Program-made: the position numbers and the translations under genes
The notes under the pieces: model-generated
The model's database searches: none
What the model was told of the DNA's origin: nothing
Seen by the model: the letters and a program-made list of their open reading frames with translations, nothing else
NCBI GenBank assembly: GCA_048213135.1
Contig: PS015208.1
Coordinates: 67,291-118,532, forward strand
Length of the DNA: 51,242 bases
Source of the DNA: Reclinomonas americana ATCC 50394
Taxonomy: Eukaryota
Reading direction: 5' to 3'
Part shown: positions 2,926-51,242 of the stretch, piece by piece
How the letters are laid out: every line of letters begins with the position of its first letter
Position numbering within the stretch: position 1 is the first letter of the stretch

Positions 2926-5092
2926 TTAGTCGCACCACCAGTACCTCTGGTCGACGCCGAGTGCCTCCCACATGGCGCACGTGTCGGCCTTGTAGTTTTC
3001 GACGGCTTGCGGCGGATCGCGCATGACCATGGTGGTGAAGGAGGACGAGGTTGAGGAGCGGAAGAAGGGCGGCCAGACGGCCTGGTCCAGCTGCCCGTCG
3101 GTCATCAGCTGGGCCCACATGGTGCGCAGGAATTGCGAGTGGCGCTCGTCGGTGGGCGTGGGCATGTAGCCGCTGTCGGGACCCCACAGCTGCACGTGGA
3201 CAGAGGAGGATGTCAGTGTCTCGCAATTTGTGTCGCACAGCGCAGCGGGCGGAGCTTACCTGCAGCCCATTCACTTGATCCCACGTGTGGAAGGCGTACC
3301 GCGCATAATAACTATCAGAGACGAAAATGGGCGTTCCCGGGTTCCAGTCTGCCCGAGAGACAACATACGGTAGTGAGGGTGGTGGCGAGAGCAGGATCGC
3401 ACCATCCACCACTCAACTGTTGACAAAGACGTAGATCGGACTCTTGTATGCGCCCGTGGCGTGTGCACGTCGCACGAGAGCGATGCTGGCACACGACAGG
3501 CCATAGTCGGACACAATGGCCTGCACGGCGACAGTGAGAACTGGTGAGAGGAGTGGGAGGGGTGATCCGTCAGCGACCAGCGCGCAACATCGAACGCCAT
3601 CTGGGGATCGCTGTTCGCCTCGGCGCTGTACTGTGCCAACACGGTGGTCGCCACACCGCTCGGATTCTTGTATGCGGCAAACGACTTGGTGATAAAGTCC
3701 TTCCACTGTGCCGAAGTGTAGCCAGCCACCCGCACCTCTGGTCCGTAGTCCTGCTCAACGCGAAAAAGGTGAGTGCTGCGACTTGTGGTTGGACGACATG
3801 GCGCGCAACGCACCGACTCGTAGCCCATGTTGCCAAACATGAACGGCACATCGACGAGTCCAGTGGCGAGGGCGTCGCCAAACGGCATCGTGATGACACG
3901 CCTGTCGACCACCGGCAGACCGGCGTAGTGCATGCCGTTGGCGCTCTTTGGCATGTTCCACATGCCCGGCGTGTCCCACGAGTGCGGAATGGCGTGCGTG
4001 AGCTGCGTGGTACCGTCATGAGTGCGGAAAAAAAGAGAAAATATGTTGCAGGTTTGTGCACACTCACCGTCTTGATCGACGCTCGTCGCATGCACGTCAG
4101 CCGCGCCGACCACGAGCTCAACGAGCCACAGCCGGCCGCATCGAGAATGCCCGCGTTCTGCTTCTCCGCGTCGTGCATCGAAATGGTAATGTTTGGCGAC
4201 CCCGACAAGGAGATGGCGCGGTGGAAGAGACCACGAGAGGCAGCACTCGACATGAGCGCGAAGATGGACGTGCCACCGCTGGACTGGCCGTACACGGTGA
4301 CACGCGACGGATCGCCGCCAAAGTTGGCAATGTTGTCGCGAATCCACCGCAACGCCAGCTGCTGGTCGAGACTGCGCACGAGGCATGAGCATGACTGACA
4401 GGCACACTCACACTCACACTCACACGCAAAGTACACGCAACATGCCGTAATTTCCCGAGGTGCCTCCCTGCTCCTCGCTGAGCTCCGACACGGCAAGGAA
4501 GCCAAAGATATTCAAGCGATAGTTGATGGTCACGCCCACGCAGGGGGTGGTGGCCACAAAGTTCTGCACGTACTCGTCCACCGCGGAGCCATCCATCAGG
4601 CCTCCTCCGTGAATGTCGACCAGCACCGGCAGCAGGCCGGCACTCGTGGCATTGCTACTTGTCGCGGGCATGTAGACATTGAGCTGTAGACAGTCCTCGC
4701 TCCCATCAGAACCGTCGCTCTGTACGCAGCGCGGTCCCAGTCGCGTGGCATCGAGAATGCGCGTGGGACCCCAACAATCCGCCGACTCGGGTGCGCGCCA
4801 TCTGAGGTCGCCCACAGGCGCCTTGCCGTACGGGATGTTCTCAAAGGAGGCCACTGAGTGCCCTCCCACTACTGTGCTCTGCAGACGACCCTGTGTGGCA
4901 CCACCCGCAGCGCGTGTGAGCAAAAATGGAGAGAAGGAGTGTGGCAGTGTATCTCTCAACTTGCACGAGTCCGCACGTGGTGTTGACGAGCAGTGAGGGC
5001 GCTGTTGACACGTGGGCAGACGATAGAGGCCATGTGCATACCAGCACGGCCAGTGTGCACACGCACACGAGTAATGCGTGGCGCTTTTGCAT
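2926..5092 (-). CDS. Secreted type-B carboxylesterase/lipase (alpha/beta hydrolase)
   Basis: Hydrophobic signal peptide and motifs IPYGKAPVGDLRW, SEDCLQLNVY, IHGGG, NYRLNIFGFL, GNYGILDQQLAL and FGGDPSRVTVYGQSSGG (nucleophile elbow). Seven introns. Confidence 0.92.
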
Positions 5093-5106
5093 GTTATTGC
5101 GTTGTA

Positions 5107-7695: not shown

Positions 7696-7765
7696 CTTGT
7701 CAGCACAGCAGTGACAGACAGAGACTATTCCGCTCGCCTTTCCCCACCTTCTTTCTCACTCAATC

Positions 7766-8957
7766 ATGGAGCTGCTCGTCGCCCTTGGCACACTCGTGTT
7801 CCCCGGTGACATTGTCGGTCGACTCAGCGACGCGCAAGGCACAGAAGAGGATGGCGAGTATGAAGAGGAAGAAGACGAGGAAGACGAGGGTGCGTCTGCA
7901 TCGACAAAGACCACACTGGCCATGTTGAGACTGGGTGCTGGCCTCATTCAGGATCGTGAGGTGGTCGTGGCCACGCGTGCAGGCGTGTTGAGGCGACTGG
8001 CAGCTGCAGCTGCGCACTTGTATACAGTGGATACTCCGGGATTGCGTTGTGTTGCGTCTCTCTCACTCGCACACACACACGCACACACACACATGCACAC
8101 ACACACACACACACACACTTGCACACACACACACACACACACGCACACACGCACACACATGCACAAGACAATGCATTGAGTGCATTCATTCTCTCCACTC
8201 GCTCTCCCTCTCACCATCTCCGTGCACACTGGTGGCCACATGCACTCCCTTGCACACACGTTCACTCACTCAAATGCACGCGCATGGAGCGCGCGCACGT
8301 TGAGGTGCGGCATGTCTCTCTCTCTTACACACTCACGCGCATTCACAGTACGTTCCCTCGCTGGAGGACCCTGTGATTGGAGTGGTGACGGATGCAGGTG
8401 GCGAGAACTACAAGGTCGATTTGGGGTGTCATCGGCAGGGAACGCTGTCGGTGTTGGCCTTTGATGGAGCAAGCAAGCGCAATCGACCGCGATTGGAGGT
8501 CGGTGCACTCGTGTACTGCCGTGTGGTGCTGGCCAGTCGTGATGTGGAGCCGGAGCTGTCGTGTGTGAGTCCGACGAGTCGCAAGGAGTGGATGACGGGC
8601 GAGAGTGTGTTTAATGAGCTCAAGAGCGGCACGCTGTTTGAGTGCTCGTCGACGCTGTGTCGCCAGTTGCGTTTTTTTTTTGTTGGGGTGGCAAGGCGGC
8701 TGCTGCTGCGTTCGTGCTCTGAACACTGTGTGCGGGGCTGCAGGTTGCTGGATCCCGAATGCACGGTGTTGAAGCAGGTGGGAGCGCGCATTCCGTTTGA
8801 GATCGCCGTCGGTGTCAATGGTCGTGTGTGGGTCAATGCTGCCTCGTATCGGCATCTGGCGCTCGTCTGCAACGCCATTCAGAATTCGGAGTTCCTCACG
8901 GCGGCGCAGATCAAGCTGATGGTGCGGAAGTTGGTGGAGGGCGCCGGTGGCAAGTGA
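7766..8957 (+). CDS. RRP40: Exosome complex subunit RRP40 (EXOSC3)
   Basis: YVPSLEDPVIGVV, YKVDLG, LAFDGASKRNRPRLEVGALVYCRV, EPELSC and FEIAVGVNGRVWV. Introns at 8051-8348 and 8666-8743. Confidence 0.93.
8068..8165 (+). repeat. Imperfect (CA)n microsatellite inside RRP40 intron 1
   Basis: Directly visible CA dinucleotide run. Confidence 0.9.
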
Positions 8958-9079: not shown

Positions 9080-11338
9080 CTACAATTCGTCGTGCTTCTT
9101 CTCCTCTGGCAAGACCGGAGCTGGTCCCGTTGTTTTCCTGCCCACCAACACACACACAGTCAGGTGACAAGTGAGTGCACACTGACACAGAGATCACTCA
9201 CCGGTTGGCCTGGATAAAGGTGACCAGACTCTCAAAGTCCAGCTTGCGGCCCTTGTACTGAATGGGCCGGGCGGCTTTGGTGGCCGGGAACAGCATGATG
9301 GTCGGGAAGCCCTTGACCTCGACGCCGTCCGGCAAATCGTTGTCGTCCAAGTTGTAGCGGGCAATGGTGATGCCCTGGTCGGCCGCGTACATGTTGGCGA
9401 GCTGGCGAGGGGAGAGAGAGAGAGGTGAGGTGACAGCAGTGAAGGAGGATATGATGCAGAGAGTCACGCACCAGCTTGTAGGTGGGTGCCAGCGTCTTGC
9501 AGTGTGTGCACCAGCCGGTGTAGAACTCGACCACCACATCGCGCCCCACGTCCTGCGTGCGCTGCGCAAAGGACGAGCGCACAAACTGCAGACACACACA
9601 CCACATTTGTTAGAGGAGACGTGCAGACTGCACATGCGTGTGCGTGCACGTAACGTCCTTCAGGTTGCTGCGCGCATTCGTGGTCGGCTCGGCCGCACTC
9701 TTGTACGTCGGGCGCAGTTTGCCCTTGGCGAAGCCTTCCATGAACGCCGCAATCCTCGCCGGGTCGTTCACATCATCGGTCGGCAACACATACTTGGTGA
9801 CCTGCGGCAGCACACACGGTGAGTCCTGGCCGGCAAGCACACGCATCGACAGGGTGGGTAGGTGGTCAACGCACCAGATCCTTGTCCAAAATGTGCACCT
9901 CCGGCAGCGCATTGAGGTCGACCTTGTGGCGCGCGGCAAACGTGTCGAACTCGACAGTGTCGAGCACCACGGCCATGAACTGCTGGTTCACCTTTTTGTT
10001 CACGTGCTTGCTGCGGGCGTCCCAGATGGCGCCAATCACATTGCTGGTCTCCCGACTCTCCGACGGGTTCACATACGCAATCAGCAACGGGTGCGTGCCA
10101 CTCAGGGCCTCTGCATAATGCACAGGTGAGCGCGGCCCGCTGCATTTGGCAGAAAGAGGAGATGATGACGTTTGAAGAAGAAAACGCACCGGGACTCCAT
10201 CCGGCCGACAGGGAAATCACATAATCGGTCGACACCGTGTGCAGCCACTCCAGCACCTGTCCAGCGTCAAACTTCTCGGCCATGGCCGAAGGCATGTCGA
10301 CAGCCACCGTCTTGGAGAAAGGTGCAAACACTCGAAGCGCCGGCGACGACTTGCCGAGACCAAACGGACGCGCAGTCTTCTTGTCGGTCACAAACGCAAA
10401 GTTCATCTCGTTCTGGAAGACGCGACCCACGGACTCGAACTGCTCCAGCACTACACAAGCACGCCTGCTGGTAAGCACGCGCGAACGGTGCAGTCGGAGA
10501 GAGAGAGAGAGACACCACGCAACGCTTACGACTCGGCTTGCCCTCAAAGTACGCAATGACACGTGGCTTGGACGAGACACTGGCCCACTTGGTCTTCTTG
10601 CTCTTGTTGTCAATGTTGGTCAGCGGCGAGCGATCGTACGTCTGCAGGTACGCCACCAGCGACTTGGCCGAACCGCCCATGCCCAGCGGGCGAATGACTC
10701 CCTCACTGCGTCGTCGGCATGATGCATGAGAAAGACAACAGGAAGGAAGGATCGACTCTTACTCGAGAAGGTGACGCACCGTCCGACCAAGTACGACGGC
10801 ACCTCAGGCTCAAACGACGGCATGAGCGTGGGACTCTCTCGCAACAGCTCCATGAGAGCCTCCATGTTGGCCTCGTCGCCCACATTCAACTTGGCCACAG
10901 TGATGCGCGTCGATCCAATCGTCGCCTGCAACGCCTGCGATGCACGCTCTGCCGACTCGCATTCCTTGCACTCTTCCGCGTCACGCAGACTATCACACAC
11001 ACACGCATGAGCGCACGATGCAGAGAGAGTGTATTTCACAGTGCGAGTGCGCGCAACAGCAAGAGAATGGGGGTCGGCGCAGTGCGCGGGTCCAGTGGGA
11101 ACATGAACTTGGCCACGTCACTGGCCGTCACTAGCTGCAACGGAGGCAACATCTGCCCAAGTCGCTGTCGCGCAGCATGCACCGCCTGCAATACGTGTCA
11201 GAGCGACTCTCCCTCACACGCACACACACAACACAACACACGCACAGCTGGGTCCTGCCGCTCAGCAGCCATCACACCACCACCAGCACTGATGCACACC
11301 AGCAGTGCAACAACCACAAGCAAAACGCGTGCAAGCAT
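9080..11338 (-). CDS. Protein disulfide isomerase family protein, ER-resident
   Basis: Signal peptide, C-terminal thioredoxin domain (DVVVEFYTGWCTHCKTLAPTY...VKGFPTIMLFPA), and a last exon ending EEKKHDEL-stop. Confidence 0.9.
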
Positions 11339-11414
11339 GTGTGTATGTGACTCGGAAAAACCAAAGGACGACGTGCGGGACACAGACTGACTCTCTCTCG
11401 TCTCTTCTCGTTGC

Positions 11415-13483
11415 ATGTGCGCAGCAGTGGCGTATCGTGTTGTGCGTGGTCCTGGCGCCAGTGCGGCCTCTGCACGTCGCAATCGCGCAGACCAAGAGGA
11501 AGACGAAGAGGAACGAGTGGAGGACCGATTGTGGCGCGCAGAGGTCCTCTCTCTTTTTCTTCGTTCTCCTCTGCATCGCCTCTGTGCTCACGCGCTTGTT
11601 GTGCAGGCACAGTACCAGCAGCGCAGAGACGTGCGGCGTCGCGAGGAAGACGAGCGCGTGTTGGAGGAGGTCACTGGGCGACCAGTGATCACTCGACGTG
11701 CAGCACAGGCGGTGCGCACGGAGCCTGTGGAGGAGCGACTGTACAGGCAAGCACTGGAGCAGAAGAGGCGATCGCAGCAAAAACGTACGCGCTCGACCCC
11801 AAGCTTTGCCATGCCATTTGCGAACATGACTGATATCTTTTGTTGTATGTACTATAGTGGAGCATACTCGATCATTGTCGCCGCGATCGCCGGCCAGTGG
11901 GTCGCTATCGGTGGAGGAACGACTGTTGATTGCAGGCGCGCGTCATGCGCAGCACTTGGATGAGCTGCGGCTGCAGCGGGAGCAGGAGGAGATGCGGCAG
12001 GTGACGGGCGTGCCGGTGTTGAGTGAGCTGTCGGAGCGCATGGTGGCCACCACGCGGACGGCGACGTCGGTGCCACCGCATCAGAGGCTGTATGAGCAGG
12101 GTGTGCGACGTGATCGCACGCCTCCGGCTCTTCAGCAGCAGCAGCAGCAGAAGAGTCCGCGCCCGAGTCACAGGAGCGTGCAAATGGCGAGTCCGCGCAC
12201 GGCGGGTGGTGAGCGTGTGGAGGATCGCTTGCTCAAGGCCGGCGAGCGACAGAGTCAACGTCAAGCAAAGCTGCAGAAGGAGTCGACGGCGGAATTGAGT
12301 TGCGTTTGGATATGGAAGGCCTGGCGTTGCGGAGTCGCTGACCCCCATTGCTGCCTCGCAGCGTTCCGACCTCAACTGCGACCGCACGTGGCCAACATGA
12401 AGCGCGACGGCAAGATCGAGGACCGCCTGCTGAAGCAGGTCGAATTCATGGAGCGCCGGCGGCAAGTACTCGTTCGTGACGTGATGCGGGATGAGATCGC
12501 AAAGGCCGAGCTGAAGAATGGCCAGGTGCGGAACGGGAGATGCTGATTGACGCTCCCTTCTTCTTGCTCCTCATCGATATTTGTTGTTCTGCGCAGCAAC
12601 TCTTCACTCCTGTCATCCACCCGCGGTCGGCGGCACTGCAAGACAGACCGCCGTTGGAGGAGCGAACTCGTAAACACTCGACGGCCAAGGAGCAGTGGCT
12701 GAAGCAGCAGAAAGCACGTCGTTTGCAGGAGGAGATGGCCGAGTGCACGTTTGCGCCGCAGGTGCGCCAGGCACGGCGACCGGCTCTGAGTCCACCAAAA
12801 TCCACTCCGCCGTCGGCTCCTTCAGCAGCACCACCACCACCACAAACCACGTCGTCTGCTGCCACGTTGCGTAGACGAGAGTTGAGGAGGGGAAGAGGAG
12901 ATACTTTGACGCGCTCACTTTTGCTGCTGCTGATTACAGCGACGGATACGCGCGAAGCGCCCAGCGCCAACCCGCTGCCGACCAGAGGTACGGCCAGAGG
13001 CGCCCGCCTGACATACAGGCACATGACGACGAGGAGGACGAGGACGACGGCAGTGATCCATACGATGTGCCGATCTCCGACAGCGACGAGTACGACGTTC
13101 CGACCGATACCGAAGACGAAGTACCTCAGCGTCATCAGCAACAGCCGCCAATGCCGCCGCCGCCTCCTCCTCCTCCTCCTCCACCACAAATGCCCACACC
13201 ACCACCACCGCCACCGCCACCACCGCCACCAGTAGTCGTACCTCCAGTGGCAGTGCCAGCGGCAGAGGAATCGCCGCCTTCAGGCGACAAGACAAAATGG
13301 AGACGACGGCGGAGGGAGCTCTCCAGTCACGCGTCGCCGCATTCCTCCGCCTCCGCACCCCGCACGCCCGGCAGAACTCCCACCTCTGCCCGGTCGGTAC
13401 GCATGTCGAGTCGACACGACGAGGAGCTCGCAGAGGTGCGACAGCTGCTCGAAGAATTGTTGGCGGAGGAACGCCAAGTGTAA
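11415..13483 (+). CDS. Uncharacterised repeat protein (V/I-E-E/D-R-L and TFxP repeats) with a Pro-rich, coiled C-terminus
   Basis: Spliced frames contain RVEDRLW, VEERLY, VEERLL, HQRLY, RVEDRLL, IEDRLL and TFRPQ, LFTPVI, ECTFAPQ. Five introns placed; the start codon is uncertain. Confidence 0.65.
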
Positions 13484-34670: not shown

Positions 34671-37600
34671 ATGCTGAGCAGCGTTCTGCGATGGAGCGCA
34701 CAACAGCTCTCCACGCCATCCTCGACGTCGAAAGCATCGTCAGCGATGATGACGACACTGATGACGCAACCACTTCGATGGCATCTCTCTCGGCGAGGAT
34801 TCATCGAAATGAGAACCACACTGCCCGACAACCCCGGTAGGAGCAGCAGGCACCTTACTCACACACAGACACATTCTCTTCTCTCACACACGCACACACA
34901 TGCACGCAGGCGATGCACTGAAAAAATACGGCAAGGATCTGACCGAAGTTGCATACTTCTCTCTCTCTCTTCCCCCACCTTCTCTCTCCCGCCACTCACA
35001 CCTCCACTCACTCAGTTGGCGGAGAACGGCAAACTCGATCCGGTGGTTGGTCGCGACGAAGAGATTCGCCGCACTCTGCAGGTGCTCGCCCGTCGCACCA
35101 AGAACAACCCGGTTCTCATCGGGGAGCCGGGCGTGGGCAAGACGGCGATCATCGAGGGCCTCGCGCAGCGCATTGTCAAGGGCGAGGTACCGGACAGCAT
35201 TAAGAACCGGCGAGTGATTGCGCTGGATTTGGGCTCGTTGGTCGCCGGCGCCAGCTACCGCGGAGAGTTTGAGCAGCGACTCAAGTCGGTGCTGCGCGAT
35301 GTGCAGCAGGCCGAGGGCAAGATGCTGCTGTTCATCGACGAGTTGCACACGCTTGTGGGCGCTGGAGTGCGTTGCTGCCGAGTTGTCGCGATTGGTTCCG
35401 GTGAGGGAAACTGACTGTGCATGCAGGCTGCTGAAGGATCAATGGATGCGTCAAACATGCTAAAGCCGGCACTGGCACGTGGCGACTTGCACTGCATCGG
35501 TGCGACGACGCTCAACGAGTATCGCAAGGTTCGACCGTTCGCGGTGTGTCAAGGGTGGAACCTGTCTCCTAACGACCACCACGCACACAGTACATTGAGA
35601 AAGATGCCGCGCTGGCGCGGCGATTCCAGACCGTGTTCGTGCCAGAGCCGTCGGTGGAGGCCACTATTAGCATCTTGCGTGGATGTTGCGCCTCTTTCCT
35701 CTGCGCCTTCGTCACAACTTCTGCCATCCCGAAGTGACGATGCTCGTGTGCAGTGAAGGAGCGCTACGAAGTGCACCATGGCGTGCGAATCGCCGATGGA
35801 GCACTGGTGGCCGCCGCTGTGCATTCGCACAAGTACCTGTCGGAGCGCAAGTTGCCTGACAAGGCCATTGACTTGGTGGACGAGGCAGCCAGTCGCCTGC
35901 GTCTGCAGTTACGTGGATCTTTATCATCGATCATGCTCGCTCTCCCTCACTCCACACACACACACCCCAGGCAAGAGAGCAAGCCAGAGGACATTGATCA
36001 GCTGGATCAGGCCATCATCACGCTGAAGATTGAGCGCGAGGCGCTGAAGAAGGAGAGTGATCGAGCGTCGCTGGAGCGTCGCGAGCGTGTCAATTCCGAA
36101 CTGCGCCAGAAGCAAAACGAAATGGACCGCCTCATGAAAGTGTGGCAGGAGGAGAAGTTGCGTGGAGAGATCCTCGTCGCTTCTTGTTGTTCTATCCCTG
36201 TTCTCACGCATATGCACAGGAAGCGCATCAACGAACTGAAGGAGTCCAAGGCGGCACTGGAACGCGCCAAGGCCGAACTGGAACGAGTGCAACGCACCGG
36301 CAACTGGCAGCGAGCCGGCGAGCTCAAGTACTCCGAGATTCCCAAGCTGGAGCAGGCGCTGAAGCATGAGTTGCGTGCGAATCAACTACACGAGGAGCAT
36401 GTTTCTCTGTGGTCTCACAGGATTCGCAGAGAATCGGATGAGCTCCGCATGCTGAGCGACGTGGTGACGGAAAAGGACGTGCTGCGCGTGATTGGCAAGG
36501 CCACGGGCATTCCAGTCGAGGTGTGTGCGAGAGAGACGGCCGGCCATGTCAACCGTTTCCTTTCTCGTCGCTTATCAAAATGCACGGTGACGCACAGAAT
36601 TTGATGATGGGCGAGAAGGAGCGCTTGTTGCAAATGGAAAGCATGCTCAGCAAGCGCGTCGTGGGGCAAGACGAGGCCATCAAGGCGATCAGGTGAGGCT
36701 CACTACCGAATTGTTATTTATTGCGTCTCCAGTTTTTTTCTGTGGTCTCATCGCCGTCGTCCCAGCAATGCAATTCGCGTTTCGCGTGCCGGTTTGCATG
36801 CGCACAATCGCCCGCTGGGCTCCTTCTTGTTCCTCGGCCCAACGGGTGTCGGCAAGACCGAATTGTGCAAGGCGCTGGCGCAGTTCCTCTTCAACGACGA
36901 CAACGCCATGGTCCGCATCGACATGAGCGAGTACATGGAGCGCTTCTCCGTGTCGCGCCTTGTCGGTGCACCACCGGTGCGCAATGTGTTTGCGCAGTGC
37001 GTCAGCAGTGGATTGTCGTCACTCACACGCCAACAAAACTTGCAGGGCTACGTCGGCTACGAGGAGGGTGGCACACTGACCGAGGCAGTGCGTCGCCGAC
37101 CGTACCAACTGGTGCTGTTTGACGAGTTCGAAAAGGCGCACCGCGAGGTCTCCAACATTCTGCTGCAAGTCATGGACGAAGGCCACTTGACCGACAGTCA
37201 GGGCCGGCGAGTCGACTTCAAGAACACCCTCATCATTCTCACCAGCAACATTGGCGCACAGTCGCTAACTCCCGACTTGTCGGTACGCATTCTTCTTCTT
37301 CTTTCGCTAAGTTCACTGGCACTGACTGAACGGTGTTGTGGCGATCGATGACAGGATGCGGAAGTAAAGTCGACGCTGATGGATGCCGCGCGCAACTTCA
37401 TGGCCCCCGAATTCTTCAACCGTCTCGACGAAGTGGTCGTCTTCAATCGCCTAAAGTTCGAGCACATGGATCGCATCATCGACGTTCAAATGCGCAGTTG
37501 CGATACTCACTGTGGCCGATGCTGGGCATGTTTACTGATGGAGACCGTGCGTGAACAGATATTCGCGGAATGCTGGCTGATCGACACATTGACGTGGAGC

Positions 37601-37976
37601 TGGACAAGCCCGCTCGCGAATTCCTGGCTCGCGTTGGCTTTGAGCCAGCATATGGCGCCCGGCCACTGAAGCGCGCCATTCAGGTACACACTGCTGCTGT
37701 GGAAGTTGACCTTGGTCGGTCTTGTCTCTCGCTCACACGCCGCCGTCGCTGTGACACCAGGAACACCTGCTGAATCCGCTCGCGGCTCGCCTGCTGCAAG
37801 GCGATGTGCTGGAGAACGATCTGGTGCGCGTCCTGGTGGACCCTGTTGACCGCAAGCAGCTGACGTTTGAGATTGAGCACCGCGGTGAGCCTGCCGGCAA
37901 GGCCGACGGCAAGTCCGCGTCGAGCTCGTCCACCAAATCGAATGGCTCCGTCCAGGAGGCCGAGATCGTGTCTTGA
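34671..37976 (+). CDS. clpB: ClpB/Hsp100 disaggregase, mitochondrial Hsp78-like
   Basis: Walker A motifs GEPGVGKT and [15 protein letters not shown], middle coiled coil, [30 protein letters not shown] and YGARPLKR. It lacks the N-domain and begins with an Arg/Ser/Thr-rich presequence. Fourteen introns. Confidence 0.96.
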
Positions 37977-40464: not shown

Positions 40465-42419
40465 TCACGACGATGGTTGGGCGGCGGTGCTGCGCGGGAG
40501 ACGAATGTCGGTGGGTGAGCGGACAGCAACACCTCGCTGCTGGCAGGCGGCAGTCAGGCGGCGTTTGATTACGGTTAGATCACGCTCGCCGACCGCCGCT
40601 GCGTCTTCGACATCGCTGCCACTCACGGCCACCACCAGCAGAGGACCGCTCGAGCGCGTGAGAGAGACCTGCAGGTCGGCAGCCGAGGGCGGCTCGTCCT
40701 CCACTCCTCCTATCGATCGCACACACACACACGCGCAGCGTCAGCGCCATCAGCAAGGGGGAGTGGTTGCGGCCAAGCAAGACAACGCAACCCTCGGACA
40801 AGATGACCACGGCGGCGCCACAGTCGCGCTCGTGCAAATGGTGAGGCGGAACAATGTCGACGTCGGTGGGCACATTCGGAGAGGTGACGAGCTCTTGCGC
40901 CACGCAGTCCTCGTGTACCATCACCGCCACCTCCGTGGCCGCATGCACCTCGAGCAGACGCTCAATGCACTGTTCCACCGTCACGACGACTGCCACACGG
41001 ATTGTCAGCAAATCGACGCACATCTCCAGCCAAGGACGTACACAAAGCACTCAACGATCAGAGCGATTCGTGTCAATCAGCCACACACTGCTGGTGCCCT
41101 CTGGCCGGTCGGCATCGTCCTCGGCATCAGCAGCGGGCGGCGGTGCGGGAATCTCCTCAAACACCTCGTGAAGCACGTGAGCTGTGCTCGTCGTCAGCAT
41201 CGATGAAGAAGAAGTCAGCTAGGGGGGACGCAGACAACCGCACCGACTGTAGGATCCAGCCGATACTGCTGCTGCAGGTGACATTGCGAGGCGACACCAG
41301 ACAAGCACCAGTCCAGCACACTCTCCGACAGAGCCGACACCAGATCGATCTGCGACTGCGGTATGCCACTCGACGGTACCAGTCGCGGTCGGGGACCTTG
41401 CACAGAACCCGCGCACACAAATTGCACCACTGTTTGTTTGCAGAGGAAGGAGATTAGTGAGGTCGTCGAGGATGATTCGAAAAAACACCACACCGAGCGC
41501 ACCATCGTGTCCGGCAGAAAGCTGCCAGCAATTATTGCGCAAGTTGAGCATGGTGTGCGAGAATGACTACATCGACATAGAGAGTTCTACGCACCGGTAC
41601 CATGCCCAGCGGCACGCTGCATTGCGAGGCGCCGTCGAGAATCACACGGTACACGGTGCCGGACTGAGGCAGCTGACGCGCCATGTGTCCGAGGTCGGCC
41701 AGAGTGACAAAGAAGATGCGAGCGGTGGCCAGCGCACGGTCCAGCTGATCGTCATGACGACGCTGCGCGACGATAGCAGATAATGTCAGCTACTCCTATC
41801 AACAGGAAGACCACCGATCTCGCGTCACACCTGTCGCAGCGCTCCGGTCGACAACACACGACCTCCGCGGTAAAGAGACTCTGCACCAATCAATAAAAAA
41901 AGTAACACTGAGTTAGCGTGCGACTGCGAGTGCTCTACGAATGGGACTGGTCACGCACCAAAGTACGACATGTGGGCGTCGGAGAGTGTGTCGTGCACGA
42001 GGCGCACCACATGCAGCTTGGAGGCAGCATCGGGAGCCTCTTTGAAGAACATGCTCGCCAAGTTGTCCACAGTGGCATTGGTCGGGCCAGTGACAATGAC
42101 GCGGTCGTGATGGAACGCCCAGGTGAACAGCGACAGGATCGCCGTCAGGACCGACGACTTGCCTGGCGATACACACGCACACGCCTGTGAGTGAGCAACA
42201 CATTGCACTTGCACCACATCTCTGGCACACGCACCTGTGCCTGGCGGTCCAGTGATGGCGACCAGGTTGTGCATGAGGGCCGCCTCCAACGCACCCAGCT
42301 GCGACTCATCAAACACGGCTTGATCGATCGAACTCGCAGACGCCGGCTCCACCACGGCCGCCGACTCGCCAAGTGCTACAGCGTCCAGAGAACCAGTGAG
42401 TGCGGGGTCACCAGCAGCA

Positions 42420-42456
<37 letters not shown>

Positions 42457-45404
42457 GACGCAACGAGTAGTTCGGAAGCGCGTTAACAGGCGCCACGGAA
42501 CATCGGCCGAGTCAATGGCGAGCGACAGCAGCTCGCGCAACGGCGTATCAGCTGCCAGTCCACTGGATCCGCTGACGTGGAGTCGGAGGCGCCTTTCGGC
42601 AGCCTCACGCGCCAACGTGCTCAATGATTTGGTCTTTGTTGGAGAAGCACGGGGCATATTAACACAAGGCAATGAACACCCCCGGAGGGGGATAGAAGCT
42701 GACACTAGCTCACCTGGCCGCTGATAATGTTGCGAGTGTTGGTCGGCAGGTCGAGGTGCAGAATGTTGCGAATGGCGAACAGCATGGCCACCGTCTCGTG
42801 ACGGTCCGTGTTGATCAAGCGACGCTCGTGAACCGGGTAGCGGCCACAGCGAGCGGCCACATTTGCCGCCTGCGTGTTTCCACACAGACAGTCAGCAACA
42901 ATGACATCAACGCGGTGGAATAGACTCGACGCACCTCTGGGGGCATTCCGTTTCCAATGTCAATGTGCAACTCGAGTGTGCGCAGACTGGCCACGTATCG
43001 ACACAAATGCTGTGCAGTGGCGGGTGAGCGACATGGGATGAGAAACAAGGGTGATTGTTGGCGCTGCTGCCTGTCACCTTGAAGCACACGTTGCGCGCCA
43101 CGGTGGTCAGTCGCGCCTCACTGTCGCGGAACACAACATCACGCGGCAGTCCACGGCGAACAAACTCCTCGTGCACCCACGTGAGCGGCTGCACGTCCTC
43201 CGAGGCGTACACAATGAGATCGCGCGACAGTGGTCGGTGTTGCCAGAGATTGCTGCGGCGCACAAGATGGGTAAGGGGCTGCGAGAGAGACCGACGACTG
43301 CGCTGCACACACCGGTCCTGATTCATCATGCTGCGCACTTGGCTTTTGAGGTCGGTCGCCGACTTGAACCCGAGCTGAATCAACAGACTCGTGAAGCCAA
43401 TCTCCCGCGAGGGCTTGTGCTGCGAGTCGCCACATCTCTCAGCACTTCAAGCAACATCGCACTGTGCGTCTGAATGGATGGTCACGACGTACCTGTCGCT
43501 GCATCAAGTGCTGCCACGCCACCTGCGTGTCGAACACGGATCGCAGAACAATTCTGTACTGCTCCAGCAGTGCACCTGCGTCAGCACGGCAGTCGTGAAT
43601 GACCTGTGGGGGGTCACATGTGCGCGCGGTCAGCTTGTATGCACTCACAACACGAGCTCATGAGCACTGACCTTGGTGTACGCCGGACTCTCCAACAGCC
43701 ACCGCAGAGTGCTGGTGGGCTCGGACAGCATGCGCGGCTCAGTGGAAATGTCAAACAGGTACACGTTGCCACGCGGATCCGACAGTTGCAGCAGACAGAG
43801 TGCGCCGCTGGTCGTGGAAATAGTACACCAGCAAGAAATCAACACCGATGCATGATTGTGCACACCAGATGCATGTGACGACTCACGTGTACGACAGATT
43901 GACTCCCTCGCAGTCCCACCCGAGCACGTCGTACTGCTGCAGATGTGAAGCCACAATCTCACATCGCGCGTATGAGTCCACCAGGAACAGCTTCCCGTAG
44001 ATCCCTGACATTGGTTGCGACAGGTTGTCCACCAGCATCTTCTCCCACTCCTGTCGATCGTCCTCCGGCTGTACACAAACAAAATGAGTGTCGATAGCAC
44101 TGCCACCAACACAAAGCACAACGCACTCTCGGTGGCGACGACAGAGACGATACGACTGAAGCGGCTGTCATCATGCCGGAATTCAACGGCGCCGGCACAC
44201 TGTGAGGTCGCGACTGTGCCGACACGCCACCACCACCACCACCGCTGCCGCCATTGACGCCGCGCGGCGAGTGCGAGAGTGGAGAGGGACCGCCGCCAGA
44301 GCCACCACCAGCACCAGCACCACCGCTGCCCGGCGGCGAGCCCATGGGATTGAACGAGTACATGGGTGGCGACGGTTGCGGCGGCGGCCTGCCCATCATC
44401 ATGCCCGGCGGTCCAGCTCCTGCGGGATAGTACGGCGCTGGCAGATGCATTGGCTGGCGCGAGGGCGACGGCATACCACCGGGCATGCCGTACGGCATGT
44501 GACCGAAGGAGCCGGGGGGCGAGAACGCCATGGGCACGTACAGCGGCTGCCCCGGATTGTAGCCGGGAAACCAGAGTGGCGAGCCGACCGACGGTCGCAT
44601 GGAGGAGGCCCCCGGCGACGACGGCATGTGCATCGGCATGGATGGCGAATACACAAAGTCAGTCGGCGTACGCGCGGCCGGTGAACCCACAGCCGGACCC
44701 CGCGGTGACGGCGACTGCTGCTGAGTCGGCATCGGAAGCTGCGACGGTGCACGCGAATACACTTGTCGCGGCTGCTGCTGCTGCTGCTGCTGCTGTGGCT
44801 GCGACGGAGGCGCACGCTGCTCCTGTGGCTGCTTCACCACCTGCAGCGACACAGCAGCTGGTGGAGGCGACGCTGGCGGCAGCGGCGACGGAGAAGCCGC
44901 AGGAGGAGGAGGAGACGCCGGCGGTCCGGGCGACGTTGGCGGCCGCGGACTCACCGACACCATCCACGCCGGCGTCCGTCCCTGCGACCACACCGACTGC
45001 ACCTTACTGCACCCACACACATCATAAGCCATCACCGCCACACACACATAGCTCATCGTGTATACACAGAGTGAGTCGCACGCACCCACGCGCTGGCACC
45101 GGCTGCACCGGCTCATCCTCTCCATTCTCACCATCCTCATCAGCATCATCGTCCCCGCCACTGCCCGCGGTTGCAGCAGCAGCAGCTGCAGCAGTTGCTG
45201 CTACGCTCGCCGCATGTGCACTGGCATGCGCAGCAGCACGCAGGTTGCGGCGACGCGATCGTCGGCGACCTGCGCAAAAAGAGGGAAGCCATCGTCAGTC
45301 ACATTCTCGCATCTCTCTCTCTATCTCTGTCTCACTTGCTGTTGTCTGTGACACTACGTGTGTGCTTGTGGGTGAGAGAGAGAGAGAGCCCTGACGCAAC
45401 CCAT
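40465..45404 (-). CDS. Fusion of an EXD1/Egalitarian-like DEDDy 3'-5' exonuclease and a degenerate UPF1-like SF1 helicase, with a Pro-rich N-terminus
   Basis: Exonuclease motifs VLGWDCEG, LCLLQLS, KVIHDCRAD, VFDTQVA and WQHRPLS...YASEDV. Helicase motifs DESQLGAL, ITGPPGTGKS, GPTNATVDNL, VILDGASQ, QQYRL and VSLTRS. GT-AG splicing links the two domains in frame. Confidence 0.8.
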
Positions 45405-45636
45405 ATGTGCTGTCTGCGAGTGTGCAGGTGCGCGCGCGCGTCAGCAAAACGCACACGCACACACAGACACAGACAGGCTTTCTCCTCTCGTCACGCTCTG
45501 CTCACGCGCACTGTGCACACACACAGAGAGAGACAGAGACAGACAGACGGAGAGAGAGACAGGCGCACACACGCAGGTGAAAGTCGATGAGAGAATTTCA
45601 CATCCTGTCGGATTGATTGGTGTGGTGTGTGTTAAG

Positions 45637-46555
45637 ATGGCGGGTGCGAGCGGAAATCGCACTCTGGTGCCCTCCTTTGACTTGCACCTCAATCATAACA
45701 TTCTTGAGGGACTCGCCGTCGTTGGCAAATGTTACGCACACAAGCAAAACACTAAACAAACTGACTGATTGACACGACAAAACGCACACACACTCTGTCT
45801 CTCTGTCTTGCACTGTCACTCGCAGCGTGCGTGTGTGTTGTGTGCTCTCTCTCTCGCGCACCTCTTTTCTCTGTGTGTTGTGTTGGATCTCTCTCTGATC
45901 ACTCACATGTCAAGTTTGTTTTTTTCGCGCGCAGATGATGGAACTCACCCGATCCTCACTTGCGCCACCTCCGGCTGCAAGGTGTTCATGCACAACCCGC
46001 ATGCGCAACCCGACAAGACCACTTTCCTCACCAATGCCAGTTGAGTCCGTGCGAGAGAGACAACTTGAAAGACACACTTCTCTCAATCACTCTTCCTCCT
46101 TCTCCTTATCCTCCTCCTCCTCCATCTTCTTGTCTTGCTCTTCTTGTTCTTGTTCTTCTTCTTCTTCTTCTTCTTCTTCGTCTTCTCCTTGTTGTTGTAG
46201 TTGTTGTTGTTGTTGTTCTTCTTCCTACACCTCCTTCTCCTCCACCTCCTCCTCCATCTTGTTGTCTTGTTCTTCTTCTTCTCCTTCTTNNNNNNNNNNN
46301 NNNNNNNNNNNNNNNNNNNNNNNNNNNNNNNNNNNNNNNNNNNNNNNNNNNNNNNNNNNNNNNNNNNNNNNNNNNNNNNNNNNNNNNNNNNNNNNNNNNN
46401 NNNNNNNNNNNNNNNNNNNNNNNNNNNNNNNNNNNNNNNNNNNNNNNNNNNNNNNNNNNNNNNNNNNNNNNNNNNNNNNNNNNNNNNNNNNNNNNNNNNN
46501 NNNNNNNNNNNNNNNNNNNNNNNNNNNNNNNNNNNNNNNNNNNNNNNNNNNNNNN

Positions 46556-46644
<89 letters not shown>

Positions 46645-49380
46645 TCTCTCTTCTTCTTCTTCTTTTCCTCCTCCTTCTCCTCCTTCTCCTCCCTTCTCCC
46701 TTGCCCTCGTCTCACTCTTGCGCCACAGTTCAATACCTCAACATCAACAGACCTGTGACGGCGATGGCTGTCGGCGCACCCAACGTGAACTCGTCACACG
46801 ATGCACTCTTTGTGGGCATGGGCACCAACTTAATGGCGTTGCGTGGTCTTTCCCCACACATACTCTCCATTGCTGTCGCCAAGTGGTGCTCAAACGTCTT
46901 GCTCGCAGGTACGACGTGGAGCGCAATCAGGATTTGTTCTATCGCGATGTGCAGGATGGCGTCGGCGGCCTGGTGTTTGGGCGCATTGGCAATCGGCCGA
47001 TTCCGCTCATCATTGCCGGCGGCAACTGCTCGGTGCAGGGGTTCGACTACTCCGGCAACGAGTCGTACTGGACGGTGACGGGCGACAATGCCTCGGCGCT
47101 GACGCTTATTGACGTGAATCGCGATGGCGAGAACGAGCTGGTCGTCGGCACCGACGACTTTGTCATTCGTATCTTCCAGAACGACGATGTGGTGGCGGAG
47201 ACGGTGCGCGAATGACCCCCGACATTAGCGTTGTGCACACGCGTCGTCGCCTGAAGAAAAGAATGCTGTACAGGTGGAAACCGATCGCGTGGTGGATCTG
47301 TGCTCCATCCAGGGACCACGATACGGCTACGCGCTGGCCAACGGCACCGTGGGTATCTACGAGGCCGATCACCGCGTGTGGCGTGTGAAATCCAAGAGCA
47401 GTGTGCTGTCGGTGGTCGGCTTTGACCTCGACGGCGATGGCGTGCCGGAGATCATCTCCGGCTGGAAGAGCGGCAAGTTCGAAGTGCGCAACCAGGGCAC
47501 TGGCGAAGTGGTCTACAAGGATCACTTTTCACGAGCCGTCGTCAAGGTGCTCACTGCCGACTACCGAATGGACGGCAACTTTGCCGTCATTTGCTGCACC
47601 TCCGAGGGAGAGAGTTGCGTGGCGAAAGTTGCCGCAGTGATATCGAGGTGCGGCAGCTCAACTCTGTTGCGTTGCAGTCAAGGGCTTCCTGCCGGCCACC
47701 GAGGAGCAGGCTGCCGAGCTCATGGACAATGCACAAGAAGAGGAGCAGCTCAAGGCTCTCAACCAGCACAAGCAGGTGCGCTTATTATGCAGAGGGACTG
47801 GAGACGACTCACCTGCTCACCTTCCTCTCTCTCTCTCTCTCTCTCTCTGTGTGCGTGTGCAGGAACTCATGTACGAGCTGCGTTCGTACGAGGAGAATCT
47901 GCGGAAACTCAAGGCCGGCGAGAGGAGTGCTGGCCTGGTCCCGCACGACACTCACGTTGGCTGTGCTCTCGTCGTTGCGTGCATCAGCGGCTCGTGTTTT
48001 CTTTCTATTCCCTATCTCACCATCCGTGTGCACACAGGGCGATCCATCGAGACGCATTGTCGAGGCGGTGATTGAGAGCACACCGGGCACGGTGATCAAG
48101 GCAGCCGTGTTGTTTGCGGAGGGATTGTTTACGGGCGAGAGCTTCTTCTCTTGTCCGCGGGAGCCGACGAACCAGCTGCGCATTCCCATCAAGCCGGAGC
48201 GTGATGTGGGATGCACCATGTTTATTCAGGCCATGGTCGGCACGCGCATGGGAACGCAGTTCCACGTGTTTGAGTTGGCCTTGCTGGTTCCCAAATTCTG
48301 TGTGTACGTGTTGGAGCCGCGCGAGGCCGTCAAGAGGCCACGCTCGTCGGTTGCATTCAGGCTCACGCAGCGGAATCAACGAGTTTCGTGTGTTGTCGCC
48401 CGCCGTCTACTCCCTTTGAACGAGTGACACGCTCAACCAATTGTTGCAGATTGGCTTGTGGTTGGAGCGCAGCTTTGGTGTGCCTGCTGCTTCACTCCCG
48501 GACTCAGACGCAATCGACATTTCGCTGCGATCGATGCGAGACGGCACCGTCGTCGTCATGCAGTTCACCACCGACCGCCTGACCATCTATGTGGATCGCA
48601 TGGATGTGGCCGCCGATATTGTGCAAGACATGTGTGAGGCGTTTGAGATTGATGAGCTGGAGAGCGAAGTCGATTTCCCCGAGGAAATGGAGCGCTTCCG
48701 CACTCTGCTGCAGGAGGTCTGTATATTTGTGCCAGGTACGGCATTCTTTCTACTTGCTGACTCGTGTTCGATGGCAGGTGGACGAGTTCAACGCGGCGCG
48801 CCTGAAGATGAATGCCGAAATGGCCGACAGCTCACAACTCATCAAGACGCTCGTCATCAAGGCCGAAGACGCACGCATTCTCGGCGACATGAAGCTGATG
48901 AAGCAGATGTACGGCGACTTGCACGACCTCAACCGCGAACTCATGGGCGAGTACCAGAAGCGAGCCAACAACCATGCCGAGCTGCTGCGTCAGNNNNNNN
49001 NNNNNNNNNNNNNNNNNNNNNNNNNNNNNNNNNNNNNNNNNNNNNNNNNNNNNNNNNNNNNNNNNNNNNNNNNNNNNNNNNNNNNNNNNNNNNNNNNNNN
49101 NNNNNNNNNNNNNNNNNNNNNNNNNNNNNNNNNNNNNNNNNNNNNNNNNNNNNNNNNNNNNNNNNNNNNNNNCTCAAGGAGGTCAACAATGTCATTCAGC
49201 GAGCGAGCAAGCTGCGAGGTGAGTGGTGGAAGACGGCAGGGGTTGATGGTGCTTGCCACTCAGATGATGGTTGCAGTCGGCGAAAGCAAGGCTCGTGTGG
49301 TCAGCGAGTGCCGCAAGGCCATCAAGAGCAACAATATCGCCGCCCTCTTCAGCATCATCCGCTACGGTCGAAGCAACTGA
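45637..49380 (+). CDS. BBS2: Bardet-Biedl syndrome 2 protein (BBSome subunit)
   Basis: [51 protein letters not shown]...WTVTGDN, YALANGTVGIY, WRVKSK, QFHVFEL, AEMADSS...KAEDARILGD and IQRASKLRVG. Confidence 0.96.
46090..46700 (+). repeat. Pyrimidine-rich simple repeats ((TTC)n, (TTG)n, (CT)n) filling BBS2 intron 2
   Basis: Directly visible; pure (CT)n at about 46556-46640 next to a gap. Confidence 0.9.
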
Positions 49381-49986
49381 GACTGCACTCGTCAGCGTCG
49401 TCGTCGTCCTCCTCGCCAGCAAGTGTACTCTCTCCCCTCGCGCTCACACGTGTCGAATGCAAGCATGTAGCGGTTCTTATTCCTTTTCATACGCGACACA
49501 CATCAAAGCAGGACGGGAAGGAAAGGTGGCGTCAGGGGGGGAAAAGAAAGCGACACTAACTCATTTTCTTAGACAGGAGCGAGCGGATGTCTGTCCAAAC
49601 AACCAGGCGAAACAACAGAGAAGCGAGACATGGGAAAACACCCCCGGCGAGGCAAACAAGAGCGCCGACAGCGGAGGAGGAAAGGAGAAAAGAGTGGGAG
49701 GGGGATTATAGCCATCCAAAAATGAAAAGCGCATTGGAGTGGAGGGGGGAAAACACAAGGTGGACGGCCGTTGGCGCGACACCCAGCAGGCATCACACCA
49801 GATGCAGCTTCTACGCAACAGCGACGTACAGATAACAGAAAACACGAAACACAGNNNNNNNNNNNNNNNNNNNNAGGAGGAGGAGGAGGTGGTGGGAGGG
49901 GAGAAATCGTACAAGGTACACAACAAGGACACGGACGGCACAAGCTGGCGGTCACGTGCCCCTTATTTTTTGGCCAGTAGCGTCTT

Positions 49987-51242
49987 TTAGAGGAAGTAGA
50001 TGGGACGTGACGGCGCGTACTGCGTGTGTGCCTCCTCGTCCCACTTGAAGATCTTGAAGTCGCGCTCCAACGTCTCGTTGAAGGCCAGAATCGAAGCGAG
50101 GTTACCGCAGCGCTGCAATGACGATACTCGTGAGAAATGCGAGGGAGACGAGGGTGAGACGATGCAAGACAGTACTCACCGACTGCACCAAAGGAAGAAG
50201 GCAAGTCGAAGAGGCACAGAGCGAGTGAGTCACCGAAGTGCGATGAAGGTAAGGGAGCAGCGACGAAAGCAGATGATGGGGTACGCAACGCACTAGAATC
50301 CGGAAAGAGGGTGCGTACGGAAGCAGTCAGAAGCACACACAAACAGTTAGTTGTCACGCATATACAGACGCCACAAGCGACAGGACTCACGTACTGCGCA
50401 AACAAAGCAACAACTGTTGTGAGCAAACAACAGAGACAGATGTCGCAACAACAAAGAAAGAGACGCAACGTTGGGGGCACTCCACACAGTGACCAGGTTC
50501 TGCACACAAAAAAGAAGCACGTCTCTCACTCAGCCACAAAACAACACTCAGACAAACCGAGGGCAGCAAGCACGCACCCTCTCCTTGAACATGTACTTGT
50601 ACCCCTCTTGCACGAGCTGGTGAGCGCGGCAAATCAACTCGAGATTGTTGATGTGTGCAAACTGCACAGTCACCACCACGTCAGTCACCGTTTGTCATCG
50701 CAGGGAGGACTGGATNNNNNNNNNNNNNNNNNNNNNNNNNNNNNNNNNNNNNNNNNNNNNNNNNNNNNNNNNNNNNNNNNNNNNNNNNNNNNNNNNNNNN
50801 NNNNNAGACAGACATACGCGCCTCGGTGGTCACACGGTTGCCAAAGATCCAGCCGGCACCGCGCGGGCTCAACGCCCACGTCTCAATGTCCTCCGGATCG
50901 CTCCACATCATGTCGCAGAAGGAGCCCTCGTGTGGGATCTCCTGCTTGCGGTCAATGAGACGAATCTGATCCAGGGTCTTGACCTCGGGTGACAGGCCAC
51001 CGTGCACACACAGAATGCGTCCGTCAATGACCTGCACGCAAACGACATGAGAGTGTTGGAAGGCGGCAGAAAGAGAGAGAGCAAGCGAGCGACAGCAGCA
51101 CGCAACAGCCGCAATGTTAAAGTAGTCGCACACTTCCATGCAGTACTTCCACGCGTTGCCGGAGCCGTACTTGGACTCGCACTCGTCGTAGAAACCATAG
51201 ACCTTGGTGATCTGGCGCGACTCGTGGTTGCCGCGCAACAGC
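49987..51242 (-). CDS. PPP6C: Ser/Thr protein phosphatase 6 catalytic subunit (PPP6C/SIT4-like); 5' part lies outside the window
   Basis: [89 protein letters not shown] and C-terminal YFL-stop. Confidence 0.93.

Follow-up and report, generated by a model that had tools for sequence, protein, structure and literature searches.

Two one-base-offset classes of 5' splice site in a draft eukaryotic scaffold, possibly read in a single recognition register

The shifted register is an established mode of recognition for human 5' splice sites (Tan et al. 2016, PMC4856993, citing Roca and Krainer 2009), and the excerpts of that paper used here put the validated noncanonical registers combined at 1.5% of human sites. 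According to the same excerpts, human shifted-register sites resemble the donors described below in that an extra pyrimidine comes after GU, the consensus downstream lies one base over, and a +1 G replaces the -1 G opposite U1. The human model oligonucleotide has A at -1, as is often the case here (20 of 45 donors), and the human cut is fixed later than U1 docking, as we propose here. The two cases differ in that the class found here makes up 45 of 147 modelled introns, has a GCGU core rather than AAGU, and is known from sequence alone. The bulge +2/+3 register (Roca et al. 2012, as cited in the excerpts of PMC4856993) likewise combines an extra U after GU with tolerance of a one-base irregularity by U1; however, it keeps the exon bases in the normal register, whereas the exon preferences here shift by one base. 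Excerpts of a study of Micromonas (Mamiellophyceae; Verhelst et al. 2013, PMC3879977) describe GC richness, short introns, an AG/GTGCGT consensus (a slash marks the cut throughout) and a CTGAC-type branch site, all of which recur here, but they describe no second, shifted donor class, and here CTCAC is the prevailing branch site. A literature search returned no published account of a GTTGCGT donor class, donor logos often being confined to figures or supplements outside the reach of such a search. Judged by titles and abstracts, the literature likewise held no U1 shifted register in a protist genome, the excerpt of one tunicate paper merely mentioning the idea. Should the genome-wide version of the reading given below hold, a shifted register would here, for the first time in any genome, be a main class and not a rarity.

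The window analyzed is a single 51-kb stretch of a draft eukaryotic scaffold that contains 16 N gaps (3747 N in sum), about 20 genes, and short, densely packed introns. Introns were called with our own self-trained gene model, together with protein-homology checks in three genes, and are thus predicted rather than observed in RNA. The model yielded 147 introns in 31 gene pieces, all with GT-AG ends by construction, and its donor score used positions +3 to +9 only, ignoring exon bases. Donors with G at +5, typically G/GTGCGT, were classed as canonical register; those that start with GTT and have G at +6 and a base other than G at +5, typically /GTTGCGT, were classed as shifted. By these definitions, 90 of the 147 donors were canonical, 45 (31%) were shifted, and an ill-defined 12 fell into neither class. 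The heptamer GTTGCGT occurs 39 times in the window against 12.4 expected, a count attained in 0 of 100 shuffles. Two other approaches were discarded: gene finding with untrained signals and without a donor model gave 28 and 26 introns, mostly spurious, and a donor-hexamer screen through a loose downstream branch and acceptor pattern was overpermissive, with a 30% background.

The introns of both classes are ordinary U2-type GT-AG spliceosomal introns. A CTCAC or CTGAC branch site 18 to 20 nt from a CAG acceptor is common to the two classes, the median length is 69 nt in either, and both occur together in 15 of the 16 gene pieces that have at least 2 introns. U12-type introns have the donor RTATCCTT and a branch motif of their own. 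A U12-type identity of the shifted introns was rejected, their donors reading GTT[G/A/T][C/A]G and their branch and acceptor signals being the same as those of the canonical class. Introner elements were rejected as well; an all-against-all blastn of the 147 introns gave 185 non-self matches, and the 30 listed were 13 to 24 nt long and mostly at repeated offsets, as simple repeats would be.

The original prediction held that shifted donors follow exonic A, C or T and that canonical donors mostly follow G. This was confirmed across the 147 modelled introns: exon G stood at -1 in 72 of 90 canonical donors versus 2 of 45 shifted donors (A, 20; C, 11; T, 12; G, 2; Fisher P = 2.4e-18), and in 6 of the 12 other donors. 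All of the examples it had cited were recovered, namely, the shifted donors gaa/GTTGCA at 34948, ggat/GTTGCG at 35685, ggc/GTTGCG at 46838 and aat/GTTACG at 45731, the canonical donors ccg/GTGCGC at 36977 and cag/GTGAGG at 36693, and, for its statement that some canonical donors follow a base other than G, gga/GTGCGT at 35367, the junction of which is gap-free against homologs. The rule tracks the register and not the T at +3, since -1 G stands in 7 of the 11 GTT donors whose core G lies at +5, compared with 2 of the 45 that have it at +6.

That the classes or the -1 rule are products of the gene model, of codon phase or of chance is the least probable of the explanations considered. The calls are predictions, 1 of 14 donors in the ClpB gene described below was misplaced, and the 12 other donors are ill defined. 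Against this, the donor model was blind to exon bases, and a donor-blind rerun, in which 117 of 150 introns were the same as in the first set, gave the same table (-1 G in 64 of 78 canonical versus 2 of 38 shifted donors; P = 3.6e-16). A phase-aware null, built from the base ahead of exonic non-donor GT, set the expected number of shifted donors with -1 G at 11.2 of 45, against 2 observed (P = 3e-4). Controls showed no such pattern: uncalled look-alike motifs had -1 G in 16% (n = 786) versus 21% (n = 104), with no split by class, and introns from rejected gene models had it in 12 of 44 canonical-like and 1 of 10 shifted-like cases. G stood before 3 of the 39 raw GTTGCGT sites, compared with 21% for any GT. 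Finally, at homology-checked junctions in three genes, -1 G was found in 0 of 12 shifted and 9 of 10 canonical donors (P = 2e-5), and all 22 of these junctions restore conserved protein sequence. The two donor classes and the -1 base rule are thus confirmed for the predicted introns of this window.

A single exception to the rule had been predicted. That donor, atgg/GTTGCGTCA at 45400 on the minus strand (intron 45339..45400), was recovered, but a second predicted shifted donor after G was found as well, gagg/GTTGCGTTG at 40791 on the minus strand (intron 40710..40791). Both come from the model only. The first sits at the doubtful 5' end of a helicase gene model, among exons of 1 codon and 0 codons, and the second lies in a nonconserved 3' part of the same gene; homology is uninformative on both because both are in nonconserved parts of that gene.

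The homology-checked introns come from three gene pieces. The BBS2 piece (46764..48993, plus strand; an exon has 64% identity to its top homolog) contains 7 modelled introns, 4 shifted and 3 canonical, before it enters an N gap at 48994, and none of its 7 junctions opens a gap in the alignment to the homologs shown. Model and homology agree on its shifted introns ggc/GTTGCGTGG (46838..46908), aga/GTTGCGTGG (47614..47677), gtc/GTTGCGTGC (47974..48037) and cga/GTTTCGTGT (48383..48449), the last of which has T at +4 and is the shifted counterpart of G/GTTCGT, and also on the canonical intron acg/GTGCGCGAA (47204..47273), all on the plus strand. The first BBS2 intron, a shifted one of 204 nt with the donor aat/GTTACGCAC (45731..45934, plus strand), is outside the 147-intron set and was placed by homology: exon 1 was located at 45664-45729 by tblastn, and splicing 45730 to 45935 yields ...GKYDGTHP where homologs have GKYDGKHP. 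One scan of metagenome contigs returned no BBS2 relatives, and a tree built by a quick method placed the query outside the sampled green algae on a long unresolved branch.

The second piece (34809..37973, plus strand) encodes a ClpB/Hsp104-type chaperone for which homologs were found; its N-terminal part is missing, inside the gap at 33577-34493. When its 14 modelled introns were checked against homologs, 10 junctions were clean, 3 were unclear and 1 was wrong. The homology-checked shifted introns here are gat/GTTGCGCCT (35685..35753), with the gap-free junction ...ILRG/LKERY, gca/GTTACGTGG (35908..35970), gaa/GTTGCGTGG (36157..36219) and gca/GTTGCGATA (37497..37558), and the cited canonical intron that follows a base other than G is gga/GTGCGTTGC (35367..35426, gap-free junction), all on the plus strand. 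The donor of the canonical-register intron aag/GTTCGACC (35529..35590, plus strand) was moved from the modelled 35544, 15 nt downstream, because the modelled protein has an insertion of 5 residues that is absent from every homolog shown and the move removes exactly 15 nt. A minor donor type with G at neither +5 nor +6 is represented by cag/GTACACAC (37684..37760, plus strand), which has a gap-free junction; two further cases lie at 23657 (plus strand) and 38738 (minus strand).

The third piece, a carboxylesterase gene on the minus strand (2929..5083; Pfam COesterase, E = 1.9e-36), has 8 modelled introns, 4 shifted and 4 canonical. Homologs were found, the nearest of which aligns cleanly across 5 junctions. 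Its checked shifted introns, all on the minus strand, are cat/GTTGCGTGT (4372..4441), the junction of which falls within a conserved SGNYG..LDQ block, gat/GTTGCGCGC (3521..3588) and aca/GTTGAGTGG (3349..3417).

The two donor types had been expected to align as one motif, and this was borne out: base preferences at canonical +3 to +7 match those at shifted +4 to +8, sliding one intron-side profile by a single base brings it into line with the other, and the intron consensus of the shifted class is thus displaced one base downstream. The exon side slides as well. Composition at shifted -1 is like that at canonical -2 (chi-square P = 0.63) and unlike that at canonical -1 (P = 1e-15), such that -1 adopts the -2 preference without the G, and composition at shifted -2 is closer to that at canonical -3 (P = 0.13) than at canonical -2 (P = 0.003). 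The log-likelihood of the exon flank of shifted donors was -176.3 in the slid register, -191.1 under exon background and -243.1 in the same register. In addition, the base aligned to canonical +4 is C in 41 of 45 shifted versus 43 of 90 canonical donors (P = 5e-7). Such a stricter GCGT core is what would be expected if a lost pair must be compensated, although part of the strictness may be due to ascertainment by the gene model.

These comparisons bear on a reading in which U1 pairs in its normal register, with the +1 G opposite C8 and the +2 U opposite A7, and one U loops out so that GCGU can pair, the cut being unchanged relative to U1. We consider such a bulged U unlikely, though it has points in its favor: bulge +2/+3 is among the human noncanonical registers, with 68 predicted sites in the excerpts of PMC4856993, it is preferred by 5 of 45 shifted donors in a what-if duplex model, both -1 G exceptions included, and some such accommodation is probably needed at the U6 stage in any case. 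It predicts, however, that the -1 G and -2 A stay put, whereas the -1 G was seen in 2 of 45 donors and the exon side did not keep its normal register; the same-register likelihood is far worse than the slid one. A slid flank is also exactly what descent would leave if shifted donors arose when the +1 G of canonical ones changed to T, the old exon flank lying one base over through inheritance and not through recognition, and a single substitution does convert AG/GTGCGT to A/GTTGCGT. That history is nonetheless very improbable. The change costs the mRNA one base, and the coding frame is intact around each of the 12 shifted introns checked by homology; by our reasoning, the frame could not be mended by moving the AG acceptor one base, as this would require two AG dinucleotides to share a base.

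We favor, with a probability of roughly 0.55, the reading that shifted donors are recognized in the same register as canonical ones and cut before the first GU, which would put a shifted-register mode at 31% of the modelled introns. The 5' splice signal would then be a single motif of approximately (C)-A-G-[G or U]-U-G-C-G-U-(G) with two possible cut places. A reader, most likely the U1 snRNA 5' end with its proteins, would dock in a constant register on U-G-C-G-U, the invariant core, together with the two or three bases that precede it, and the catalytic spliceosome would cut ahead of the first GU within the docked stretch. With G at the variable position, the first GU would begin there and the preceding G would be left in the exon (AG/GUGCGU); with U, the preceding G and that U would make the GU, and the cut would fall one base upstream (A/GUUGCGU). 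Shifted donors would have A, C or T and almost never G at -1 because the base left there is the canonical -2 base. A constant register with cleavage one base upstream was part of the original prediction, and the sliding of the exon-side preferences agrees with it; the support is partial overall, textbook U1 pairing poorly with shifted donors.

Pairing was evaluated with the textbook U1 5' end, AUACUUACCUG (from PMC4856993), as a stand-in for that of the host. Mean duplex energy was -1.7 kcal/mol for shifted versus -6.2 kcal/mol for canonical donors, and shifted donors took no consistent register, with +1 opposite C9 in 9 of 45 and opposite C4 in 15 of 45. For the one-register model to hold, U1 must therefore be altered or the reader must be something else. 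The U1 5' end may be retuned to the GCGU core, or there may be a second U1 isoform with A replacing C opposite the extra U; U6 would accommodate the extra U at a later stage. With a computed guide complementary to the canonical consensus, the core paired in one register in 37 to 40 of 45 shifted donors, and the shifted +1 was at position 9 (shifted register) in 20 of 45, at position 8 (bulged register) in 5 of 45, and unpaired (core only) in 20 of 45. Pairing alone is insufficient to explain the depletion of G, since G is scarcer than C or T at shifted -1 and canonical -2 though G-U pairing should be tolerated.

The poor fit of textbook U1 also favors a reader of a different kind, a second snRNA or a protein that takes GUUGCGU as its own signal in a register unrelated to the canonical one, for example, a U1 variant with an inserted base; judged by titles and abstracts, variant U1 genes occur in other organisms. 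We hold this to be doubtful. On this view it would be a coincidence that positions -1, -2 and +4 to +8 of shifted donors resemble positions -2, -3 and +3 to +7, respectively, of canonical ones, and the 3' signals, lengths and host genes are alike in both classes. An Rfam scan and a tRNA scan of the 51-kb window gave no matches, and no snRNA was found in the window.

Returning to the one-register reading, a wider version of it would have this lineage uncouple 5' splice-site docking from cleavage-site choice genome-wide, with U1 retuned to the UGCGU core or present as an isoform pair, one docking register, a cut at the first GU, and about one-third of introns in the shifted register. We advance this tentatively, as a possibility somewhat short of an even chance. 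Most of what is known about how the cut site is fixed relative to U1 docking comes from a small number of human sites that are engineered or rare; if one-third of introns are shifted, natural paired examples would number in the hundreds to thousands in this genome, and they would come with a clean rule in the sequence, set by the G-or-U position together with the -1 base. The coevolution of the U1 and U6 interactions at the 5' splice site with a GC-rich consensus could also be approached, and in gene prediction one-third of sites would be blurred or missed by donor models that use only one weight matrix. Moreover, the -1 G requirement on intron position within codons would relax, with a bearing on where introns persist. 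The original prediction had held that intron placement would be freed from coding constraint in this way, and the phase distribution lends it weak backing: introns in phases 0, 1 and 2 numbered 50, 24 and 16 in the canonical class and 16, 13 and 16 in the shifted class (P = 0.039).

Introns were predicted with a semi-Markov gene finder that combined coding (3-periodic, second-order) and length models with matrices for branch sites and acceptors. Donors were scored by a three-component mixture over positions +3 to +9 that excluded exon bases. A permissive rule covering both donor types seeded the gene finder, which was then retrained for five rounds. This gave 31 gene pieces and 147 introns in the window, with donor mixture weights of 0.51 (GTGcGT), 0.33 (GTTGCGT), and 0.16 (third component). 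Donors were classed by the place of the core G, those with G at +5 being canonical and those with GTT and G at +6 but not +5 being shifted; a slash marks the exon-intron boundary below.

The original prediction held that the donor class tracks the last exon base (-1), and within the window this observation was confirmed. Among the modelled introns, G preceded 72 of 90 canonical donors (A 5, C 9, T 4) versus 2 of 45 shifted donors (A 20, C 11, T 12; Fisher P = 2.4e-18), and 6 of the 12 donors fitting neither class followed G. At the shifted -1 position G is actively depleted, with 2 observed versus 11.2 expected among 45 (P = 3e-4) from the bases that precede non-donor GT in exons at the same codon position. 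The same was seen at raw GTTGCGT sites, where G preceded 3 of 39 versus 21% before any GT. Both motifs were enriched in the window (GTTGCGT, 39 occurrences versus 12.4 expected; GTGCGT, 92 versus 63.5), and none of 100 shuffles reached either count. A single exception had been claimed; the predicted G-preceded shifted donor at 45400 (minus strand) stands, but it is joined by a second predicted one at 40791 (minus strand). When all GT were scored equally, 150 introns resulted, 117 of them identical to the first set, and G preceded 64 of 78 canonical versus 2 of 38 shifted donors (P = 3.6e-16). In introns of rejected, mostly antisense, models, -1 G was found in 12 of 44 canonical-like and 1 of 10 shifted-like donors, and uncalled look-alike motifs were preceded by G in 16% (canonical-like, n = 786) and 21% (shifted-like, n = 104) of cases; from these controls, the -1 pattern was not created by the gene-finding pipeline.

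Modelled junctions were also compared with homologous proteins. In BBS2 (46764 to 48993, plus strand), 7 of 7 were gap-free. In the ClpB/Hsp104-type gene (34809 to 37973, plus strand), whose 35000-37500 part showed by eye many 60- to 77-nt introns with G/GTGCGT-like and N/GTTGCGT-like starts, 10 of 14 were clean, 3 fell within regions of variable sequence, and 1 had its donor 15 nt out of place; homologs indicated aag/GTTCGACC at 35529, and this position was adopted. In the carboxylesterase gene (2929 to 5083, minus strand), 5 of 8 were clean against the nearest homolog and the other 3 were unclear. The donor aat/GTTACG quoted in the original prediction, located at 45731, proved to be that of the first BBS2 intron, outside the gene models, as established by tblastn and an exact splice product (...GKYDGTHP). 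In the homology-checked subset, G preceded 0 of 12 shifted versus 9 of 10 canonical-register donors (P = 2e-5).

The intron-side preferences of the two classes were equal after a one-base slide. G was present in 69 of 90 canonical donors at +3 and 39 of 45 shifted donors at +4; C followed in 43/90 (+4) and 41/45 (+5), T occurred in 52/90 (+6) and 33/45 (+7), and G in 37/90 (+7) and 24/45 (+8). The decisive test, not anticipated by the original prediction, was whether the exon side slides as well, and the single-register interpretation passed it. Frequencies at shifted -1 (A.44, C.24, G.04, T.27) were not distinguishable from those at canonical -2 (A.37, C.28, G.10, T.26; P = 0.63) but differed from those at canonical -1 (P = 1e-15), and shifted -2 was nearer canonical -3 (P = 0.13) than canonical -2 (P = 0.003). 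For the three exon positions of shifted donors, the log-likelihood was -176.3 in the slid register, -243.1 in the same register, and -191.1 under exon background. Were the donor instead read with one U looped out and the exon side in normal register, the -1 G would be retained, but shifted donors show no such preference. Moreover, since 7 of 11 donors with T at +3 but the core G at +5 (GTTTGT, GTTCGT) followed G, the -1 rule is tied to the core register and not to the +3 T. A perfect GCGT core was present in 25 of 45 shifted versus 23 of 90 canonical donors, a difference to which a model favoring consensus-like shifted donors may contribute, and this stricter core fits compensation for a lost pair. 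Intron phases 0/1/2 (canonical 50/24/16 versus shifted 16/13/16; P = 0.039) hint weakly at the proposed freeing of intron placement by the shift. Among variants, the shifted donor gaa/GTTGCATAC of 34948-35015 (plus strand), supported by the ClpB alignment, has A replacing the core G, and the predicted ggt/GTCGCGTTT of 27555-27613 (plus strand) has C replacing the extra T; both follow non-G. A minor donor, GTACAC, without G at +5 or +6, begins three introns (23657-23717 and 37684-37760, plus strand; 38672-38738, minus strand), each preceded by AG, the ClpB one (37684) being backed by a gap-free junction.

These results partly support an interpretation to which we give slightly better than even odds (about 0.55), namely, that a single motif, (C)AG[G/U]UGCGU(G), would dock in one register and be cleaved before its first GU, as AG/GUGCGU or A/GUUGCGU. 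The constant recognition register originally proposed agrees with preferences that slide together on both sides of the junction, and U1 would be the presumed reader of the motif. With the textbook U1 end, pairing of canonical donors followed the normal register and averaged -6.2 kcal/mol, and shifted donors paired weakly (mean, -1.7 kcal/mol) in an inconsistent register. A what-if guide was also computed as the complement of the canonical consensus, and positions 2, 5, and 6 set it apart from the textbook end. Under this guide the core paired in a constant register for 37 to 40 of 45 shifted donors; their +1 G paired with position 9 in 20/45 and with position 8 in 5/45, both -1 G exceptions being among the latter. 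Compatible readers would be a retuned U1 or an additional isoform carrying A across from the extra U. Pairing alone does not account for the scarcity of G at canonical -2 and shifted -1, where it is less frequent than C and T.

The shifted register has been described for rare human sites, beside a bulge +2/+3 register, in Tan et al. (2016, PMC4856993), where validated noncanonical registers combined make up 1.5% of sites, whereas the shifted class makes up ~31% of modelled introns in the window. The canonical consensus of Mamiellophyceae, AG/GTGCGT (PMC3879977), equals that of the window, but the accessible portion of that paper does not mention a shifted class. A search of literature text, outside figures and supplements, returned no relevant description of a GTTGCGT, GUUGCGU, or GUUGCG donor, and for "shifted register" it returned human work plus a tunicate paper merely raising the idea; an earlier description in some genome paper is possible. 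The mechanism is already known, and what is new, as far as we found, is its use by ~31% of introns and the clean -1 rule.

The window is a draft eukaryotic scaffold with 3747 N across 16 gaps and ~55 to 61% G+C in coding parts; Rfam and tRNA scans of its whole length found no families or tRNAs. Pfam searches of single exons identified carboxylesterase, RRP40, and metallophosphoesterase, with weak matches to a chaperonin-like protein and an AAA_11 helicase, and homology searches named BBS2 and ClpB. BBS2 (identity to homologs, ≤64%, with no named sequence close to it) spans at least 45664-48993, broken by two assembly gaps, with exons 1 and 2 (45664-46017, plus strand) upstream of gap 46290-46555 and absent from the gene model; in a quick tree it fell outside the green algae sampled, on a long branch that was not resolved. 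Near BBS2 lies a chaperonin-like gene (38042-40389, minus strand), two exons of which match Cpn60_TCP1 weakly (E = 9e-5 and 4e-3). Several of its predicted donors are unusual (GTGATT, GTGATA); the gene may encode a divergent BBS-type chaperonin, or it may be poorly modelled. A long gene at 40468-45404 (minus strand; 20 modelled introns) has a 293-residue proline-rich exon at 44127-45005, and its exons resemble a 3'-5' exonuclease part (by eye) and, after that part, a helicase (weak Pfam AAA_11, E = 5.7e-4); the 5' end of its model is doubtful, with exons of 1 and 0 codons. At 11908-13404, the final run gave five intronless minus-strand fragments, the largest without a Pfam match, in conflict with a plus-strand gene over 10556-13232 in an earlier pass.

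Canonical and shifted introns shared a CTCAC/CTGAC branch motif 18 to 20 nt from the acceptor, C at acceptor -3, and lengths with a median of 69 nt; of the 16 gene pieces containing more than one intron, 15 had both donor classes. The 30 matches inspected among 185 blastn matches between introns were 13 to 24 nt and simple-repeat-like, and they gave no indication of a family of mobile introns. Across all 147 modelled introns, the best branch sites were CTCAC (57) and CTGAC (28), giving the consensus CTCAC rather than the usual CTRAC; the acceptor is CAG almost without exception, and the branch A is ~18 to 23 nt away from it. Much longer than the median is a predicted 298-nt RRP40 intron with a GTTGCGT donor (8051-8348, plus strand).
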